Origin: Mustelus asterias
Lineage: Eukaryota
Length of the DNA stretch: 64,000 bases
NCBI RefSeq assembly: GCF_964213995.1
Contig: NC_135830.1
Location: forward strand, 11,036,001 to 11,100,000
Direction: 5' to 3'
The notes below the pieces were generated by a model. It was not told the origin of the DNA. It made no database searches and saw only the letters and a program-made list of their open reading frames with translations. The position numbers and the translations under genes were made by a program. Below, piece after piece: positions 12,751 through 57,740 of this stretch. The number at the start of each line of letters is the position of its first letter. Position 1 is the first letter of the stretch.

Positions 12751-12924
12751 TGAAGGGTGTCTTCTGCTTCTTTGTTAACGCGATGGCAAGACATGCATTT
12801 GGTTTGGTTGACAGAGAGCTCTTGTAGTCGCGCAGCACAAATGGAGGCCACTGAGCCCATCATGAGGATACCAGCTCCCCATGGCAGATCCCGCCAATTG
12901 GAGCCAATTTATTTTTTAAAGTCT

Positions 12925-15900
12925 CTCATAGCAGGAAGGGCTTGGCTCTTAGTGAGCAATTAATGGAGGGGTCACCTGTGGTTGTCCCCCTCCAAAACAA
13001 GTATATTGCTTTGGATAGTGTGGAGGAGGATGACTCTCCAGGGGTAAGCCACAGTGACCAGGTCACTGGCACAGAATCAGGTTCTGTGGCCCGGAAAGGA
13101 AAGAGAGGAATTCGGAGAGCAATAGTGGTGGGGGATGCGTCGGTTCGAGGCACGGATAGGCGATTCTGTGGGTGCGAACGGGACTCCAGGATGGTAGTCT
13201 GCCTACCTGGTGTTGGGGTACTGGATGTCTCCGAGCGGATAGGAGGCATATTAAAAGGGGAAGATAAAGAAACGGATGTCGTTGTACACATTGGTGCAAA
13301 TGACGTAGATATGAAGAGCAGGGGGATCGTACGAGAGCAATTCAGGGAGTTGGGAAATAGGCGAAAAGGTAGGGCCTCCAGGGGAGCAAGAGCTGGGCTG
13401 CTCCCAATGTCTCGTGCCAGTGAGGCTAGGAATAGGGAGTTAATACAATTGAACGCTTGGCTAAAGGACTGGTCCAGGAGGGAGGGCTTCATTTTCCTGG
13501 ATCATTGGGAAGTTTTCAAGAGAGGATGGCACCTGTACAAGAAGGATGGGTCACAACTAAATTGGAAGGGCACGAATATCCTGGCTGGGAGTTTTGCTCG
13601 TGCAGTTCGGGTGGGTTTAAACTAATATGGCAGGGGGGTGGGGATCAAAAAATTAGGTCTACAAGTGTAGAGGCTGGGGACGAGCTTGGGGCCAGGACAA
13701 GGCTGGCAAAGAAGAAGAGCACTCTGGGGGAGGATGAACTCACTGGGCCTGGAGGTCTGGAGTGCCTCTACTTCAAAGCAAGGAGCGTAGCAGGTAAGAC
13801 AGACGAACTTAGGGCCTTCATGCTTACGAAGAATTTGGATGTAGTTGCGGTGACAGAGACTTGGTTGAAAGAGAGACAGGACTGGCAGCTGAATATTCCG
13901 GGGTACAAGTGTTTTAGGCGAGACAGAGGAGGGGCCAAAAGAGGTGGGGGAGTAGCAGTATTCGTTAGAGAACATATTACAGCGGTGCAGAGGGAGGACA
14001 ATTCAGAGGGGTCGTGTAACGAGTCACTGTGGGTGGAGCTCAGAAACAGGAAGGGCGCAGTCACTATGTTGGGGATATACTACAGGCCCTCCAACAGCCC
14101 AAGGGAAGTGGAAGAACGGATATGTCAGGAGATACTGGATAGGTGCAGGAAAAAATAGGGTTGTTGCAGTGGGAGACTTCAATTTCCCTGGTATAGAATG
14201 GAAATCGCTTAGAGCTGGGACTCTGAATGGGGAGGAATTTGTAAAATGCGTACAGGAAGGTTCTTTGGAACAATATGTAGATAGCCCGACTAGAGAGGGG
14301 GCTATACTGGACCTAGTACTGGGGAATGAGCCCGGTCAGGTCTTCAAAGTTTCAGTAGGGGAACATGTGGCAAATAGTGACCACAATTCTGTTAGCTTTA
14401 GGATAGCGATGGAAAAGGATGAGTGGTGTCCCAAGGGTAAGGTGTTGAATTGGGGGAAGGCTAACTTTAGTGGGATTAGGCAGAAATTGGCAGTTGTTGA
14501 TTGGGAGAGGCTGTTTGAGGGTAAATCCACAACTGGCATGTGGGAGTCTTTTAAGGAACAGTTGTTAGGGCTGCAGGACAGGCATGTGCCTGTAAAAAAG
14601 AAGGATAGGAAGGGTAGGATTCGAGAACCGTGGATAAACAGGGAAATTGAGGGACTGGTCAAAAAGAAAAGGGAGGCGTACGTTAGGTCCAGGCAGTTAA
14701 AAACGGAGGGAGCTCTGGAGGAATACAAAGAAAGTCGGAAAGAACTCAAAAGAGGAATTAGAAGGGCAAAAAGGGGTCACGAAATGTTCTTGGCAGACAG
14801 GATTAAGGAGAATCCCAAGGCATTTTATTCATACGTTAGGAACAAAAGGGGTGTCAGGGAAAAAATCAGACCTCTCAGGGACAAAAGTGGGGAATTATGC
14901 TCAGAGCCCAAAGAAGTAGGGGAGATCCTAAATGAATACTTTGCGTTGGTATTCACAAAGGAGAGGGATGTGTTGACTGGGAGTGTCTCGGAGGGGAGTG
15001 TTGAACCATTAGAGAAAATCTCCATTACAAGGGAGGAAGTGTTAGGTTTTTTAGAGAATATAAAGACTGACAAGTCCCCAGGGCCTGATGGAATCTATCC
15101 AAGGCTGCTCAGGGAGACGAGAGATAAAATCGCTGGGCCTCTGACGCAAATCTTTATCTCATCACTGGACACAGGTGAGGTCCCAGAGGATTGGAGGATA
15201 GCTAATGTGGTCCCGTTATTTAAGAAGGGTAGGAAGGATAACCCGGGTAATTATAGGCCGGTGAGCTTGACGTCCATGGTAGGGAAGTTGTTGGAGAGAA
15301 TTCTTAGAGATAGGATGTATGCACATTTAGAAAGGAATAAACTCATTAACGATAGTCAGCATGGTTTTGTGAGAAGGAGGTCATGCCTCACTAACCTGGT
15401 GGAGTTTTTTGAAGAAGTGACTAGAATGGTTGACGAGGGAAGGGCCGTGGATGTCGTCTCTATGGACTTTAGTAAAGCGTTTGACAAAGTCCCTCACGGT
15501 AGGCTGGTGCAAAAGGTTGGATCTCATGGGATAAAGGGGGAGGTGGCTAGATGGGTGGAGAACTGGCTTGTCACAGAAGACAGAGGGTGGGAGTGGAAGG
15601 GTCTTTTACCGGCTGGAGGCCTGTGACGAGTGGTGTTCCGCAGGGCTCTGTATTGGGACCTCTGCTGTTTGTGATTTACATAAACGATCTGGAAGAAGAT
15701 GTAACTGGGGTGATCAGTAAGTTTGCGGACGACACGAAATTGGCTGGAATTGGCGATAGTGAGGAACATTGTCAGAGACTACAGATGGATATAGATCGGC
15801 TGGAAATTTGGGCAAAGAAATGGCAGATGGAGTTCAAACCAGATCAATGCGAAGTGATGCATTTTGGTAGAGCTAATGTAGGGGGGAGCAATGCGATAAA

Positions 15901-16630
15901 TGGCAGAATCATAAAGGGTGTAGATACGCAGAGGGACCTGGGTGTGCAATTCCACAGATCCTTGAAGGTGACGTCACAGGTGGAGAAGGTGGTGAAAAAG
16001 GCATATGGCATGCTAGCCTTTATAGGACGGGGTATAGAGTATAAAGGTTGGGATCTGATGTTGCAGATGCATAGAACGTTGGTTCGGCCGCATTTGGAAT
16101 ACTGCATCCAGTTCTGGTCGCCACACTACCAGAAGGACTTGGAGGCTTTAGAGAGAGTGCAGAGGAGGTTTACCAGGATGTTGCCTGGTTTGGAGGGGCT
16201 TAGTTATGAGGAGAGATTGAGTAAACTGGGGTTGTTTTCACTGGAAAGACGGAGGATGAGGGGAGACCTAATAGAGGTGTATAAAATTATGAAAGACATA
16301 GATAGGGTGAACGGTGGGAAGCTTTTTCCCAGGCCGGTGGTGACGTTCACGAGGGGTCATAGGTTCAAGGTGAGAGGCGGGGGGGAGGTTTAACATGGAT
16401 ATCAGAAGGACATATTTTACACAGAGGGTGGTGGGGGCCTGGAATGCGCTGCCAGGCAAGGTGGTGGAGGTGGGCACACTGGGAACGTTTAAGACTTATC
16501 TCGATAGCCACATGAACGGAGTGGGTATGGAGGGATACAAAAGAATGGTCTAGTTTGGACCAGGGAGCGGCGGGGGCTTGGAGGGCCGAAGGGCCTCTTC
16601 CTGTACCGTATTGTTCTTTGTTCTTTGTTG
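12925..16630 (+). mobile_element. CR1 LINE, partial ORF1 (SGNH/GDSL esterase) plus frameshifted ORF2 (APE+RT)
   Basis: ORF1 12942-13625 (VVGDA, HIGAND). ORF2 pieces 13457-14158, 14169-15626 and 15551-16393 (TETW, GDFNFP, SDH, FADD). (TTCTTTG)n tail. Confidence 0.95.
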
Positions 16631-34692: not shown

Positions 34693-37600
34693 TCAAGCTA
34701 TCCCACTCCCTACCATCCTGGTGTGCTCCATGTGCCTATCCAATAACCGCTTAAATGTTCCTAAAGTGTCTGACTCCACTATCACTGCAGGCAGTCCATT
34801 CCACACCCCAACCACTCTCTGCGTGAAGAACCTACCTCTGATATCCTTCCTATATCTCCCACCATGAACCCTATAGTTATGCCCCCTTGTAATAGTTCCA
34901 TCCACCCGAGGAAATAGTCTTTGAACGTTCACTCGATCTATCCCCTTCATCATTTTATAAACCTCTATTAAGTCTCCCCTCAATCTCCTCCGCTCCAGAG
35001 AGAACAGCCCCAGCTCCCTCAACCTTTCCTCATAAGACCGACGCTCCAAACCAGGCAGCATCCTGGTAAATCTCCTCTGCACTCTTTCCAGCGCTTCCAC
35101 ATCCTTCTTATAGTGAGGTGACCAGAACTGCACGCAATATTCCAAATGCGGTCTCACCAAGGTCCTGTACAGTTGCAGCATAACCCCACGGCTCTTAAAC
35201 TCCAACCCCCTGTTAATAAAAGCTAACACACTATATGCCTTCTTCACAGCTCTATCCACTTGAGTGGCAACCTTTAGAGATCTGTGGATATGGACCCCAA
35301 GATCTCTCTGTTCCTCCACAGTCTTCAGAACCCTACCTTTGACCCTGTAATCCACATTTAAATTAGTCCTACCAAAATGAATCACCTCACATTTATCAGG
35401 GTTAAACTCCATTTGCCATTTTTCAGCCCAGCTTTGCATCCTATCTATGTCTCTTTGCAGCCTACAACAGCCCTCCACCTCATCCACTACTCCACCAATC
35501 TTGGTGTCATCAGCAAATTTACTGATCCACCCTTCAGCCCCCTCCTCTAAGTCATTAATAAAAATCACAAAGAGCAGAGGACCAAGCACCGATCCCTGCG
35601 GCACTCCTCTAGCAACCTGCCTCCAGTCCGAAAATTTTCCATCCACCACCACCCTCTGTCTTCGATCAGATAGCCAGTTACCTATCCAATCGGCCAACTT
35701 TCCCTCTATCCCACACCTCCTTACTTTCATCATAAGCCGACCATGGGGGACCTTATCAAACGCCTTACTAAAATCCATGTATATGACATCAACCGCCCTA
35801 CCTTCATCAACACACCTAGTTACCTCCTCAAAAAATTCTATCAAATTTGTGAGGCACGATTTGCCCTTCACAAATCCGTGCTGACTATCCCGGATTAATC
35901 CGCATCTTTCTAAATGGTCGTAAATCCCATCCCTAAGGACCTTTTCCATCAATTTACCAACCACCGAAGTCAGACTAACCGGTCTATAATTACCAGGGTC
36001 ATTTCTATTCCCTTTCTTAAACAGAGGAACAACATTTGCCACTCTCCAGTCCTCTGGCACCATCCCCGTGGACAGCGAGGACCCAAAGATCAAAGCCAAA
36101 GGCTCTGCAATCTCATCCCTCGCCTCCCAAAGAATCCTAGGATACATTTCATCAGGCCCAGGGGACTTATCGACCTTCAGTTTATTCAAAACTGCCAAGA
36201 CATCCTCCCTCCGAACATCTATTTCCTCCAGCCTTTTAGCCTGTAACACCTTCTCTTCCTGAAAAACATGGCCCCTCTCCTTGGTGAACACTGAAGAAAA
36301 GTATTCATTCATCACCTCGTCTATCTCTACTGATTCCATACACAAGTTCCCACCACTGTCCTTGACCGGCCCTAACCTCGCCCTGGTCATTCTTTTATTC
36401 CTCACATAAGAGTAAAAAGCCTTGGGGTTTTCCTTGATCCGACCCGCCAAGGACTTCTCATGTCCCCTCCTAGCTCTCCTGAGCCCCTTTTTCAGCTCAT
36501 TCCTTGCTAACTTGTAACCCTCAATCGAGCCATCTGAACCTTGTTTCCTCATCCCTACATAAGCTTCCCTCTTCCTTTTCACAAGACATTCCACCTCTTT
36601 TGTGAACCACGGTTCCCTCACTCGGCCATTTCCTCCCTGCCTGACAGGGACATACCTATCAAGGACACCCAGTATTTGTTCCTTGAAAAAGTTCCACTTT
36701 TCATCAGTGCCTTTCCCTGACAGTTTCTGTTCCCATCTTATGCCCCCTAATTCTTGCCTAATCGCATCATAATTACCTCTCCCCCAATTGTAAGCCTTGC
36801 CCTGCCGTCCGGCCCTATCCCTCTCCATTGCAATAACAAAAGACACCGAATTGTGGTCACTATCTCCAAAGTTCTCTCCCACAACCAAATCTAACACTTG
36901 GCCTGGTTCATTTCCCAGTACCAAATCCAATGTGGCCTCACCCCTTGTCGGCCTATCCACATATTGTGTCAGGAAACCCTCCTGCACACACTGCACAAAA
37001 AGTGCCCCATCCAAACTATTCGACCTACAAAGGTTCCAATCAATATTTGGAAAGTTAAAGTCCCCCATGACAACTACCCTGTGACCCCCACACGTATCCA
37101 TAATCTGCTTTGCAATTTCTTCCTCCACATCTCTATTACTATTTGGGGGCCTATAGTAAACTCCTAGCAATGTGACCGCTCCTTTCCTGTTTCTAACTGC
37201 AGCCCATATTACCTCAGTGTGCATATTCCCCTCAAAGTGCTTTTCCGCAGCCGTTAAACTATCCTTGATTAACAATGCTACTCCTCCACCTCTTTTACCA
37301 GCTTCCCTACACTTACTGAAACATCTATACCCCGGAACGTCCAACAACCATTCCTGTCCTTGTTCTACCCACGTCTCCGTAATGGCCACAACATCGTAGT
37401 CCCAAGTAGCAATCCACGCCCCAAGTTCATCCACCTTGTTCCGGATGCTCCTTGCATTGAAGTAGACACACTTCAACCCATCTTCCTGTCTACCTGTACC
37501 CACCCTTGACCTTGATACCTTCCCCAATATCTCACCACCCTCAACACTGACTTCCGGACTACAACTCCTTTTCCCACTCCCCTGACAAATTAGTGTCAAT

Positions 37601-37710
37601 CCCCCTGAAGAGCCGTAGCAAATTTCCCTCCCAGGATATTGGTGCCCCTCTGGTTCAGGTGCACCCCGTCCTGTTTGTAGAGGTCCCACCTTCCCCAGAA
37701 CGTGTTCCAA
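34693..37710 (-). CDS. CR1 ORF2 (AP endonuclease + reverse transcriptase), 1005 codons open
   Basis: YFNARS, ITETW, GDFNFP, SDH, YRPVSLTS, DFSKAFD, GVPQGS and FADD. The ORF-track start is TTG; there is no ATG before the APE domain. Confidence 0.93.
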   Translation of the reverse strand: MEHVLGKVGPLQTGRGAPEPEGHQYPGREICYGSSGGLTLICQGSGKRSCSPEVSVEGGEILGKVSRSRVGTGRQEDGLKCVYFNARSIRNKVDELGAWIATWDYDVVAITETWVEQGQEWLLDVPGYRCFSKCREAGKRGGGVALLIKDSLTAAEKHFEGNMHTEVIWAAVRNRKGAVTLLGVYYRPPNSNRDVEEEIAKQIMDTCGGHRVVVMGDFNFPNIDWNLCRSNSLDGALFVQCVQEGFLTQYVDRPTRGEATLDLVLGNEPGQVLDLVVGENFGDSDHNSVSFVIAMERDRAGRQGKAYNWGRGNYDAIRQELGGIRWEQKLSGKGTDEKWNFFKEQILGVLDRYVPVRQGGNGRVREPWFTKEVECLVKRKREAYVGMRKQGSDGSIEGYKLARNELKKGLRRARRGHEKSLAGRIKENPKAFYSYVRNKRMTRARLGPVKDSGGNLCMESVEIDEVMNEYFSSVFTKERGHVFQEEKVLQAKRLEEIDVRREDVLAVLNKLKVDKSPGPDEMYPRILWEARDEIAEPLALIFGSSLSTGMVPEDWRVANVVPLFKKGNRNDPGNYRPVSLTSVVGKLMEKVLRDGIYDHLERCGLIRDSQHGFVKGKSCLTNLIEFFEEVTRCVDEGRAVDVIYMDFSKAFDKVPHGRLMMKVRRCGIEGKLADWIGNWLSDRRQRVVVDGKFSDWRQVARGVPQGSVLGPLLFVIFINDLEEGAEGWISKFADDTKIGGVVDEVEGCCRLQRDIDRMQSWAEKWQMEFNPDKCEVIHFGRTNLNVDYRVKGRVLKTVEEQRDLGVHIHRSLKVATQVDRAVKKAYSVLAFINRGLEFKSRGVMLQLYRTLVRPHLEYCVQFWSPHYKKDVEALERVQRRFTRMLPGLERRSYEERLRELGLFSLERRRLRGDLIEVYKMMKGIDRVNVQRLFPRVDGTITRGHNYRVHGGRYRKDIRGRFFTQRVVGVWNGLPAVIVESDTLGTFKRLLDRHMEHTRMVGSGIA

Positions 37711-38516
37711 TTATCCACGTATCTGAAACCCTCCCTCCTGCACCATCCCTGCAACCACATGTTTAAGTGCACTCTCTCCCTGTTCCTCAACTCGCTATCA
37801 CGTGGCACCGGTAGCGTACCAGAGATGACCACATGTTTTGTCTTTGCTCTCAGCTTCCAGCCCAGCTCCCGAAATTCCTGTTTTAAATCCCCGTCCCTTC
37901 TCTTACCTATGTCGTTGGTACCAATGTGTACCACGACTTGTGACTGTTTCCCCTCCCCCTTAAGAATCCGGAAAACACGGTCCGAGACGTCACGGACCCT
38001 GGCATCCGCTAGGCAACAAACCATACTCGAGTCTCTTTTGCTGCCACAGAACCTCCTATCTATCCCTCTAACTAATGAGTCCCCAATAACTATTGCCCTC
38101 CCGCTCTCCTCCTTACCCTCCTGAGCCACAGGGACGGACTCAGTGCTGGAGATCCTCTCACTGCGGCTCACCACTGGTATGTCGTCCCCCTCAACCGTAT
38201 CCAAAGCGGAATACTTGTTGCTAAGGGGAACGACCACAAGGGATCCCTGCACCGACTGCTTCTTCCCAGCCCCTCTCACCGTCACCGATCTATTTTCATT
38301 CCTCGGAGTAACTGTATCCCTGAAGCTTCTGTCTATGGCCATCTCTGCATCCCTAATGATCCTAAGTTCCTCCAACTCCAGCTCCAGTTCCCTTACACGG
38401 TTTTGGAGGAGCTGCAGATGGATGCACTTCTCACAGGTATAATCAGCAGGGGCACTGACGTCGTCCCTCACCTCGAACATAGTGCAAGAGGAACATTGCA
38501 CTGCCTTCACACCCAT
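37596..38516 (-). CDS. CR1 ORF1 protein (CxxC-CxxC zinc finger, leucine zipper, SGNH/GDSL esterase), 306 aa
   Basis: QCSSC...TCEKC, LQNRVRELELELEEL, IGDSL, HIGTND and DGVHLN. Confidence 0.9.
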   Translation of the reverse strand: MGVKAVQCSSCTMFEVRDDVSAPADYTCEKCIHLQLLQNRVRELELELEELRIIRDAEMAIDRSFRDTVTPRNENRSVTVRGAGKKQSVQGSLVVVPLSNKYSALDTVEGDDIPVVSRSERISSTESVPVAQEGKEESGRAIVIGDSLVRGIDRRFCGSKRDSSMVCCLADARVRDVSDRVFRILKGEGKQSQVVVHIGTNDIGKRRDGDLKQEFRELGWKLRAKTKHVVISGTLPVPRDSELRNRERVHLNMWLQGWCRREGFRYVDNWNTFWGRWDLYKQDGVHLNQRGTNILGGKFATALQGD

Positions 38517-44900: not shown

Positions 44901-45670
44901 ACCTGACCCTTCCATATTGTCCACCCTCTGTACCGCTGTAATATGCTCCCTAACCAGCATTGCTACTCCCCCACCTCTCCTCGCCCCTCCTCTGTCTCGC
45001 CTAAAACACTTATACCCCGGAATATTCAGCTGCCAGTCCTGTCCTTCTTTTAACCAAGTCTCCGTTACTGCAACCACATCCAAGTTCCGGCAAGCATTAA
45101 GGCTCTAAGCTCGTCTGTCTTGGCCGTGACGCTCCGTGCATTGAAGCAGATGCACTCCAGACCTCCAGGCCCACTGAGGTCATCCTCCCCCAGAATGCCC
45201 TTCCTCTTAGATAGCCTTGTCTTGGCCCCAAACTCGTCCCAAGCCTCTATGCTTATTGACCTAATGTTCTGATCCCCACCCCCCTGCCACATTAGTTTAA
45301 ACCCACCCGAACCGCACTCGCAAAACTTCCAGCTAGGATATTCGTAACCCTCCAGTTTAGGTGCAACCCGTCCTTCTTGTACAGGTGCCACCCTCTCTTG
45401 AAGACTTCCCAGTGATCCACGAATTCGAAACCCTCCCTCCTGCAACAGTCCTTTATCCACGCGTTCAGCTGTGCAGTCTCTGTTCTTAGCCTCACTAGCT
45501 TGTGACATTGGGAGTAGTCCAGAGATCGCTACCCTAGAAGCCTTGCTTTTTAGCCTACCACACAACTCCCTGAATTGCTCTCGCAGGATCCCCCTGCTCT
45601 TTCTGCTGACGTCATTTGCACCAATGTGGACAATGACGTCTGTCTGGTTACCCGCCTTTTTTAGGATGCT
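41941..45670 (-). mobile_element. CR1 LINE (partial ORF1 + decayed ORF2) with a nested SINE
   Basis: ORF pieces from 45739 down to 42186 carry HIGAND, TETW, GDFNFP and GVPQGS. (AACAAAG)n tail. Confidence 0.93.
42376..42705 (-). mobile_element. HE1-type SINE with 6-bp target-site duplication
   Basis: TCCATA at 42370-42375 and 42706-42711 flanks a complete SINE. Confidence 0.9.
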
Positions 45671-54338: not shown

Positions 54339-57300
54339 GAACAAAGAACAAAGAACAATACAGCATAGAAACAGGCCCTTCGGCCCTCCAAGCCCGTGCC
54401 TCTCCCTGGTCCAAACTAGATCATTCTTTTGTATCCCTCCATTCCCACTCCGTTCATATGGCTGTCTAGATAAGTCTTAAACGTTCCCAGTGTGTCCGCC
54501 TCCACCACCTTGCCTGGCAGCACATTCCAGGCCCCCACCACCCTCTGTGTAAAATATGTCCTTCTGATATCTGCGTTAAACCTCCCCCCCTTCACCTTGA
54601 ACCTATGACCCCTCGTGAACGTCACCACCGACCTGGAGAAAAGCTTCCCACCGTTCACCCTATCTATGCCTTTCATAATTTTATACATCTCTATTAAGTC
54701 TCCCCTCATTCTCCGTCTTTCCAGGGAGAACAACCCCAGTTTACCCAATCTCTCCTCATAACTAAGCCCCTCCATACCAGGCAACATCCTGGTAAACCTC
54801 CTCTGTACTCTCTCCAAAGCCTCCACGTCCTTCTGGTAGTGTGGCGACCAGAACTGGGCGCAGTATTCCAAATGCGGCCGAACCAACGTTCTATGCATCT
54901 GCAACATCAGACCCCAACTTTTATACTCTATGCCCCGTCCTTTAAAGGCAAGCATGCCATATGCCTTCTTCACCACCTTCTCCATCTGTGACGTCACCTT
55001 CAAGGATCTGTGGACTTGCATACCCAGGTCCCTCTGCGTATCTACACCCTTTATGGTTCTGCCACTTATCGTATAGCTCCTCCCTACATTATTTCTACCA
55101 AAATGCATCACTTCGCATTTATCAGGATTGAACTCCATCTGCCATTTCTTTGCCCAAATTTCCAGCCTATCTAGAACCTTCTGTACCTTCTGACAATGCT
55201 CCTCACTATCTGCAAGTCCAGCCAATTTTGTGTCGTCCGCAAACTTACTGATCACCCCAGTTACACCTTCTTCTAGATCGTTTATATAAATCACAAACAG
55301 CAGAGGTCCCAATACAGAACCCTGCGGAACACCACTAGTCACAGGCATCCAGCCGGAAGAAGACCCCTCCACTACCACCCTCTGTCTTCTGTGACCAAGC
55401 CAGTTCTCCACCCATCTAGCCACCTCCCACTTTATCCCATGAGATCCAACCTTTTTCACCAGCCTTCCATGGGGGACTTTGTCAAACGCTTTACTAAAGT
55501 CCATATAGACGACATCCACGGCCCTTCCCTCGTCAACCATTCTGGTCACTTCTTCAAAAAACTCCACCAGGTTAGTGAGGCATGACCTCCCTCTCACAAA
55601 ACCATGCTGACTATCGTTAATGAGTTTATTTATTTCTAAATGCGCATACATCCTATCTCTAAGAATCTTCTCCAACAACTTCCCCACCACGGACGTCAAG
55701 CTCACCGGCCTATAATTACCCGGGTTATCCTTCCTACCCTTCTTAAATAACGGGACCACATTAGCTATCCTCCAATCCTCTGGGACCTCACCTGCGTCCA
55801 GTGACGAGACAAAGATTTGCGTCAGAGGCCCAGCGATTTCATCTCTCGTCTCCCTGAGCAGCCTTGGATAGATTCCATCAGGCCCTGGGGATTTGTCAGT
55901 CTTTATATTCTCTAACAAACCTAACACTTCCTCCCTTGTAATGGAGATTTTCTCCAATGGTTCAACACTCCCCTCCGAGACACTCCCAGTCAACACATCC
56001 CTCTCCTTTGTGAATACCGACGCAAAGTATTCATTTAGGATCTCCCCTACTGCTTTGGGCTCCAAGCATAATTCCCCACTATCGTCCCTGAGAGGTCCGA
56101 TTTTTTCCCTGACAACCCTTTTGTTCTTAACATATGAATAAAATGCCTTTGGATTCTCCTTAATCCTGTCTGCCAAGGACGTTTCGTGACCCTTTTTTGC
56201 CCTTCTAATTCCCCGTTTGAGTTCTTTCCTACTTTCTTTGTACTCCTTCAGAGCTCCCTCCGTTTTTAGCTGCCTGGACCTAACATACGCCTCTCTTTTC
56301 TTTTTGACCAGTCCCTCAATTTCCCTGGTTATCCACGGTTCTCGAATCCTACCCTTCCTATCCTTCTTTTTTACAGGCACATGCCTATCCTGCAGCCCTA
56401 ACAACTGTTCCTTAAAAGACTCCCAAATGCCAGATGTGGATTTACCCTCAAACATCCTCTCCCAATCAAGAGCTGCCAATTTCTGCCTAATCCCACTAAA
56501 GTTAGCCTTCCCCCAATCCAACACCTTACCCTTGGGACACCACTCATCCTTTTCCATCACTCTCCTAAAGCTAACAGAATTGTGGTCACTATTTGCCACA
56601 TGTTCCCCTACCGAAACTTTGAAGACCTGACCGGGCTCATTCCCCAGTACTAGATCCAGTATAGCCCCGTCTCTCGTCGGGCTATCTACATATTGTTCCA
56701 AAGAACCCTCCTGTACGCATTTTACAAATTCCTCCCCATTCAGAGTCCCAGCTCTCAGCGATTTCCAGTCTATACCAGGGAAATTGAAGTCTCCCACTAC
56801 AACAACCCTACTTTTCCTGCACCTATCCAGTATCTCCTGACATATCCGTTCTTCCACTTCCCTTGGGTTGTTGGGGGGCCTGTAGTACACCCCCAACACC
56901 TCAAACTACCTCAAGTCACATGAGCAGCCTGGGAATGGAGGGATACAAACGAATGGTCTAGTTGGACCAAGGAGCGGCACAGGCTTGGAGGGCCGAAGGG
57001 CCTGTTTCCTGTGCTGTACTGTTCTTTGTTCTTTGTTAGTGACTGCGCCCTTCCTGTTCCTAAGCTCCACCCAGAGTGACTCGTTACACGACCCCTCTGA
57101 ATTGTCCTCGCTCTGCACCCCTGTAATATGCTCTCCAACTAATACTGCTACTCCCCCACCTCTTTTGGCCCCTTCTCTGTCTCGCCTAAAACGCTTGTAC
57201 CCCGGAATATTCAGCTGCCAGTCCTGTCCCTCTTTCAACCAAGTCTCCGTCACCACAATCACATCCAAATTCCTCGTGAGCATTAAGGCCCTAAGTTCGT

Positions 57301-57740
57301 CTGTCTTACCTGCTACGCTCCTTGCATTGCAGTATAAGCACTCCAGACCTCCAGGCCCAGTGAGGTCATCCTCCCCCAGAGTGCTCTTCTTCTTTGCCAG
57401 CCTTGTCCCAGTCCCAAGCTCGTCCCCAGCCTCGACACTTGTAGACCTAATATTTTGATCCCCACCCCCCCTGCCATACTAGTTTAAACCCCCCCGAACT
57501 GCACTAGCAAAACTCCCAGCCAGGATATTCGTGCCCTTCCAACTTAGTTGTGACCCGTCCTTCTTGTACAGGTGCCATCCTCTCCTGAAATCTTCCCATT
57601 GATCTAGGAAAATGAAGCCCTCCCTCCTGGACCCGTCCTTTAGCCAAGTATTCAATTGTACTAACTCCCTATTCTTAGCCTCACTGGCACGAAGCATTGG
57701 GAGCAGCCCAGAGATGGCCACCCTGGAGGCCCTACTTTTT
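54339..57740 (-). mobile_element. CR1 LINE (end of ORF1 + ORF2) with a nested short CR1 3' end at about 56899-57035
   Basis: An 827-aa ORF at 54416-56899, APE N-terminus 56906-57283 and ORF1 end 57479-57721. (AACAAAG)n tail. Confidence 0.95.

Follow-up and report, generated by a model that had tools for sequence, protein, structure and literature searches.

The closest described relatives of the junction studied here come from viruses and from other retroelements. The coronavirus ORF1a/1b junction (infectious bronchitis virus) uses the heptamer U_UUA_AAC, which together with G_GGA_AAC is among the shiftiest on mammalian ribosomes, and has the polymerase downstream in the -1 frame (PMC5009743; this and all papers named below are drawn on through the sections consulted). 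The nsp2 site of PRRSV (the virus causing porcine reproductive and respiratory syndrome), at which nsp1beta/PCBP stimulates frameshifting, has an unstructured homopolymer-rich motif 10 nucleotides (nt) 3' of it (PMC7618472, PMC5009743). Among elements lacking long terminal repeats (LTRs), frameshifting is stated for HeT-A and for Dictyostelium TRE5-A/TRE3-A, whose second open reading frame (ORF2) needs a -1 frameshift according to a review legend (PMC5009743, PMC5911963). Retroviral and LTR-retrotransposon gag-pol arrangements yield the structural protein in excess and the enzyme as a minor fusion. The same problem of a bicistronic RNA in long interspersed nuclear elements (LINEs) is handled by UAAUG coupling in SART1 and by AUG-independent ORF2 translation in L1. 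The TRE5-A fusion is said to be in some doubt. How LINE ORF2 is translated has been described as an open question (PMC3894237). We analyzed a stretch of 64,000 nt of Mustelus asterias DNA (contig NC_135830.1, positions 11,036,001 to 11,100,000; the window), in which U_UUA_AAC lies at the ORF1/ORF2 junction of CR1 LINEs.

The window is repeat-rich vertebrate DNA with many CR1 fragments, of which four copies (A to D) span the junction; B, C and D are about 85%, about 92% and 66% identical to copy A. At three of the four junctions T_TTA_AAC stands in ORF1 phase right before the ORF1 stop codon, and ORF2 continues in the -1 frame (Table 1). The frames that meet at the copy A junction extend over 12855-13625 (ORF1) and 13436-14158 (ORF2). 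The original prediction had read the copy A phase as GGT TTA AAC TAA with ORF2 in -1 and had placed identical heptamers before the ORF1 stops of copies B and C; all of its coordinates for these sites proved correct, both further sites lying on the minus strand. It had overlooked the fourth junction (copy D), which lacks the heptamer, as well as an upstream stop and a G-run insertion in copy C. Its proposal of programmed -1 frameshifting passed the test of conservation and phase across vertebrate CR1, and we consider it probable, judging from sequence, that vertebrate CR1 LINEs with an esterase ORF1 make an ORF1–ORF2 fusion in this way. What we established here is the site with its phase and conservation, an open -1 frame, and the absence of a conserved start codon.

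From these features we infer slippage, the fusion and a stimulatory role of a downstream G-run. Most ribosomes would terminate at the codon after U_UUA_AAC and release ORF1p, and the smaller share, with UUA occupied by tRNA-Leu and AAC by tRNA-Asn, would slip one base back and read a linker of 43-49 codons into the endonuclease and reverse transcriptase. The product would be an ORF1p–ORF2p fusion of about 1,270 residues, made in a low and fixed proportion, like that of Gag-Pol to Gag. It would read Leu-Asn across the site, not Phe-Lys as in the ORF2 reading FKLIWQGGG given originally. Unlike the coronavirus site, with which it shares heptamer and phase, the CR1 site has no pseudoknot or stem-loop 5-9 nt downstream, is hosted by a LINE and is directly adjoined by the stop codon. 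The likeness to gag-pol also has limits: CR1 is a non-LTR element without a protease, and its ORF1 is an esterase. TRE5-A/TRE3-A, which share the need for a -1 frameshift, are unrelated in lineage and ORF1, and no heptamer or stimulator was seen described for them in the sections of PMC5911963 consulted.

Within the window the frame change is visible in coding signals. Third-position bias followed the ORF1 frame before the site (30/84 upstream) and the ORF2 frame after it (26/99 in APE), and the linkers, 49, 49, 43 and 44 codons long, all stay in the -1 frame, the endonuclease of copy A beginning near codon +49. Canonical heptamers occurred in phase at 12 of about 3,570 other codons, none of them U_UUA_AAC; irrespective of phase, TTTAAAC was mildly enriched (20 seen versus 10.5 expected, with 3 of 100 shuffles reaching 20). 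Copies A and B differ at one of 28 nt at the junction versus a flank rate of 0.154 (P ~0.06), and copies A and D agree at 22 of 28 nt across the heptamer, the stop and the G-run, compared with 42 of 95 in the linker beyond. Since copies A, B and C are relatives, their agreement is weak on its own, and conservation judged from the window copies alone is suggestive; the real support for the site comes from outside the window.

Such support was found in Supplementary Table 2 of PMC13343379, with about 500 consensuses, of which the first 400 nt each were covered and matches were read by eye. The exact heptamer with a stop codon stands at the junction of 18 consensuses from 12 vertebrate species (elephant shark, catshark, dogfish, stingray, sawfish, bowfin, halosaur, coelacanth, bullfrog, bearded dragon, alligator and saltwater crocodile), and two further consensuses have the heptamer and no clean stop. 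Heptamer plus TA gave 23 matches (17 at the ORF1 end, six elsewhere) and heptamer plus TGA three, one of them at the ORF1 end. As a search with the heptamer is biased toward it, controls were run with heptamer-independent anchors, the catshark rows and variant spellings. Across anchors and catshark rows no visible junction lacked the heptamer; all four junctions visible in the 22 catshark rows agreed, one of them cut at the sequence end, and 21 matches to six other spellings, synonymous or variant, all fell outside junctions. After the heptamer each of the three stop codons occurs, and the following codon varies (ATG in 3 of 18). In one catshark consensus the -1 frame, read by eye, stays open between site and endonuclease; in several others, which are visibly missing bases, it does not. 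By these sequences the site is an ancient, clade-wide feature of vertebrate CR1. A halosaur consensus named 'Crack-2' (AldAff_Crack-2) has a CR1-type esterase end and junction.

The protein record covered 45 first homologues of copy D ORF1, 150 representatives of 2,133 matches and 120 of 166 profile matches, together 304 ORF1-like proteins. Among the 45, 33 end in Leu-Asn and one in Ile-Asn, and 11 have no C-terminus. A completeness filter, which drops some true Leu-Asn ends including one of three cases with a preceding Glu, kept 172 of the 304. Leu-Asn-stop ends 133 of the 163 complete homologues not of the DGxHP type, Gly-Asn nine; DGxHP-type esterases have variable ends, Leu-Asn in 1 of 9. 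Named hosts included sharks, rays, frogs, lizards, turtles, alligator/crocodilians and birds. The zebrafish LINE esterase structure 4C1B, which the ORF1 profile matches at 3.5e-45, stops at the same helix and leaves the last profile positions unmatched. A query with residues 1-160 of copy D ORF2 returned two matches, neither covering the junction.

The heptamer requires a U-ending codon before Leu, therefore the residue at that position should avoid codons unable to end in U. Eleven identities were seen there; Lys, Gln, Met and Trp never occurred and Glu in 2 of 134 (three by eye), all of them common at neighbouring positions. At 60% clustering, residues lacking U-ending codons stood at 0 versus 7 before Leu against 48 versus 32 at the neighbours (Fisher p 0.003); three other thresholds gave p of 0.01-0.02, with relatedness only partly removed. 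Two frame-broken homologues read Phe-Lys-Leu over the site, one of them continuing into the endonuclease, and this reading, combined with Leu-Asn-stop, pins the heptamer down in two further families. Three stop-mutated proteins continue with Arg/Trp-Gly-x-Gly in the register of the G-run. A distant ORF1 clade of nine proteins (P0074, P0077, P0088, P0092, P0096, P0099, P0103, P0128, P0273) ends in Gln-Gly-Asn-stop, which at the protein level fits a G_GGA_AAC heptamer; GGGAAAC plus TA gave four matches in the covered part of the consensus table, none at an ORF1 stop. Three other ORF1s end in Phe-Phe-Arg, perhaps a U-run site. Two CR1 ORF1 proteins (P0008, P0224) are filed under Pseudomonas and Klebsiella as SGNH hydrolases; these bacterial records probably contain vertebrate DNA.

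The ends of related esterases and the spellings at junctions bear on the idea that the motif is kept for another reason, either a C-terminal Leu-Asn needed by the protein, whose Leu could pack in the last helix, or a binding site or internal promoter made of the word and the G-run. The G-run resembles a CACCC/Sp-type box, which we counted in favour of this idea. The word TTTAAAC-TA also occurs in the 5' untranslated region of two dogfish families (SquAca_CR1-18 and -3), and two catshark consensuses (ScyCan_CR1-14 and -1b) start at the junction, possibly a truncation pile-up at the G-run. Yet synonymous spellings were not found at the junctions covered, related esterases end variably, the phase to both ORFs is fixed, and an mRNA for ORF2 only would be without a start codon (none in 125 codons of copy D); we regard this explanation as quite unlikely.

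Start codons were considered along the whole ORF2 frame. An ORF2 start at the AUG inside ORF1, at 13526, was offered originally as the alternative to frameshifting, with the remark, which holds, that two other copies have GTG there. The codon is ATG in copies A and C and GTG in B and D, the substitutions around it follow the ORF1 frame only, and the stretch from it to the junction contains an ORF2-frame stop in copy C and in four consensuses, exactly six codons upstream of the site in AllMis_CR1-6a, ScyCan_CR1-1a, HypSab_CR1-6b and SquAca_CR1-17a. As the -1 frame is so often closed there, this alternative is largely refuted and very improbable. Downstream, the claim that no ATG lies between site and APE held for copy A, where the first is codon +68, inside the endonuclease, and failed for copy B, where an in-frame ATG three codons past the site overlaps the stop as TAATG. 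In the 1005-codon frame of copy D, the first ATG after the upstream stop comes only 125 codons past the site, by which point about 80 residues of the endonuclease have been read. Because the codon at 13526 is unconserved or cut off and copy D has no ATG for 125 codons, ORF2 cannot generally start at AUG. An out-of-frame ATG in good context, two bases after the copy A ORF1 stop (13627-13656), opens only nine codons.

Downstream of the site lies the G-run. It begins at +11 in all four window copies, shows the exact 10-nt spacing in six consensuses (alligator, crocodile, sawfish, catshark) and lies at +7 to +10 in several others, being absent in about three. A G-rich tract about 6 nt downstream had been noted: GG does start at 6 nt, and a run of at least four Gs only from +11 (13633). 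The quadruplex stimulator proposed along with it found weak support: the G-run is the top G4Hunter window of element A (1.72) and a two-tier fold (-1.4 to -4.8 kcal/mol) is predicted in copies A-C, not D, but a three-tier pattern (four G3 tracts, short loops) occurs in none of the four copies. Stimulation would most likely come from the unstructured G-run, be it via a bound protein or via a weak two-tier quadruplex, with the adjacent stop codon perhaps helping. The PRRSV motif, to which nsp1beta/PCBP binds, has the same spacing, which we treat as a resemblance and not as a test; it is C-rich where that of CR1 is G-rich, the CR1 motif has no known binding protein, and the heptamers differ. Copy C has one extra G in its G-run (~57470-57478, minus strand), from slippage or a homopolymer sequencing error, and its ORF2 is therefore out of the -1 frame. 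A splice branch point reading of CTAAT..CAG was rejected by eye: the span is too short, there is no pyrimidine tract, and the AG is missing in crocodilian junctions.

Several observations weigh against frameshifting or its proposed stimulation. No stem-loop or pseudoknot was found 3' of the site (z-scores of -1.3 to +0.2 in eight folds), no stem starts at +4..+16, long-range partners were no better than shuffles, and Rfam gave no match at the junction. The G-run is absent or shifted in about half of the consensuses covered, which are gappy; the DNA evidence is limited to 400 nt per consensus, with no bird or turtle DNA among the sequences read. The sequences share descent, so that counts are not independent, and Glu precedes Leu-Asn in three homologues (P0029, P0213, P0214). 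CR1 lineages without ORF1 exist (PMC13343379), and ORF2p therefore need not be a fusion. Copy D, the sole copy with both ORFs open, carries two changes in the heptamer. It differs at 6 of 115 near-invariant ORF1 columns and 8 of 460 ORF2 columns; other single copies change 1-20 of the 115, a range that includes the six of copy D. Decay is a plausible but not proven cause of the heptamer loss, two changes in seven bases being somewhat unlucky. The C-terminal ORF1 difference looks private to copy D, as the closest homologue (87%) ends in Gly-Gly-Leu-Asn, and if the frameshift model holds, copy D ORF2 is probably untranslatable.

The copy D junction also suits termination–reinitiation. Here translation would end at the ORF1 stop and resume in ORF2, either on a UAAUG (the SART1 case) or AUG-independently (the proposal for L1); ORF2p would be a separate protein, and a slippery site would not be required. 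Such a route has non-LTR precedent (PMC3894237, PMC5009743) and could coexist with frameshifting. A TAATG with an ORF2-frame ATG, a further point against the fusion, follows the site in copy B and in three consensuses (ScyCan_CR1-1a, SquAca_CR1-17a and -6c). A conserved UAAUG of the SART1 type was not found, however: the codon is ATA, GTA and ATT in copies A, C and D and is not ATG in 15 of the 18 consensuses, a minority of junctions (1 of 4 and 3 of 18) thus having the motif. The fixed UUA and AAC codons, the preceding U and the constant -1 position of ORF2 are not predicted by reinitiation, which we hold to be unlikely. To judge by its sequence, the CR1 site most probably serves as a signal for -1 frameshifting whose stimulator is atypical; frameshifting itself is known elsewhere, and the CR1 case appears new.

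No report of CR1 frameshifting was found in the literature covered, the founding 1997 turtle/chicken and 2001 chicken CR1 papers and the Repbase notes lying outside that coverage. The sections consulted of PMC13343379, PMC11303007, PMC4120745, PMC2734521 and PMC3894237 do not mention frameshifting, nor do those of PMC5009743 mention CR1; those of PMC2612034, PMC6609765, PMC4255032 and PMC11835228 hold no CR1 frameshift report, the frameshift mentions in the last being unrelated. The supplement of PMC4316615 gave 16 matches, and the two displayed are locus alignments. An earlier passing mention is a real, if minor, possibility.

We assigned the window elements to vertebrate CR1 LINEs from their ORF1 homologues, the named ones being from sharks and rays at 51-69% identity, and from the likeness of the junctions to labelled CR1 consensuses. 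ORF2 has APE endonuclease and reverse transcriptase domains, the Pfam esterase match is above the cut-off for copy D ORF1 and below it for the truncated ORF1 of copy A, and copies A and D end in 7-nt tandem repeats without poly(A). A 124-nt CR1 3'-end fragment (56914-57037) is nested antisense within the endonuclease region of copy C.

Table 1. Features of the CR1 ORF1/ORF2 junctions in the window.
Feature	Coordinates	Strand	Description
ORF1, copy A	12964..13625	+	5'-truncated SGNH/GDSL esterase ending Gly-Leu-Asn-stop; Lipase_GDSL_2 E 1.6e-4, under gathering score
ATG upstream, in ORF2 frame	13526..13528	+	30 codons upstream; not conserved, rejected as ORF2 start
Overlapping in-phase heptamer G_GGU_UUA	13613..13619	+	one codon upstream; present in copies B and C too
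Slippery heptamer U_UUA_AAC, copy A	13616..13622	+	final two ORF1 codons, phase GGT TTA AAC TAA
ORF2, copy A	13616..16393	+	-1 frame; 49-codon linker, APE endonuclease, reverse transcriptase; disrupted into three frames
ORF1 stop codon, copy A	13623..13625	+	adjoins heptamer
G-run, candidate stimulator	13633..13643	+	starts 10 nt past heptamer (copy A)
Copy D	34693..38516	-	open ORF1 of 306 aa; open ORF2 frame of 1005 codons stop to stop
Matching site, copy D	37593..37599	-	heptamer with two changes; ORF1 stop shifted two codons up; G-run still at +11
Heptamer, copy B	45295..45301	-	ORF1 stop TAA next; reads TAATG
Heptamer, copy C	57482..57488	-	ORF1 stop TAG next; ORF2-frame TAG 6 codons upstream

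CR1 is the main repeat of sharks, reptiles and birds, and for its ORF2 translation the frameshift site offers a precise and cheaply testable answer. If frameshifting holds, the active enzyme would be an ORF1–ORF2 fusion, annotations of ORF2 starts would be wrong, counts of 'intact' CR1 should demand the heptamer, and CR1 mobility assays would need the native junction. For the frameshift field this would mean a natural site of great age and very high copy number whose stimulator is atypical. A bolder proposal, which we put forward tentatively and think somewhat more likely to fail than to hold, is that a single frameshift site, in use since before sharks and bony fish diverged, lets the dominant LINE clade of non-mammalian jawed vertebrates fuse its lipid-binding esterase ORF1p to the reverse transcriptase, with the slip driven by the G-run 10 nt downstream (through a bound protein or a small quadruplex) and not by a hairpin or pseudoknot. 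If true, this would give a vertebrate LINE a Gag-Pol-like architecture and supply a natural stimulator of the G-tract type, described in a 2016 review as anticipated though not yet known.
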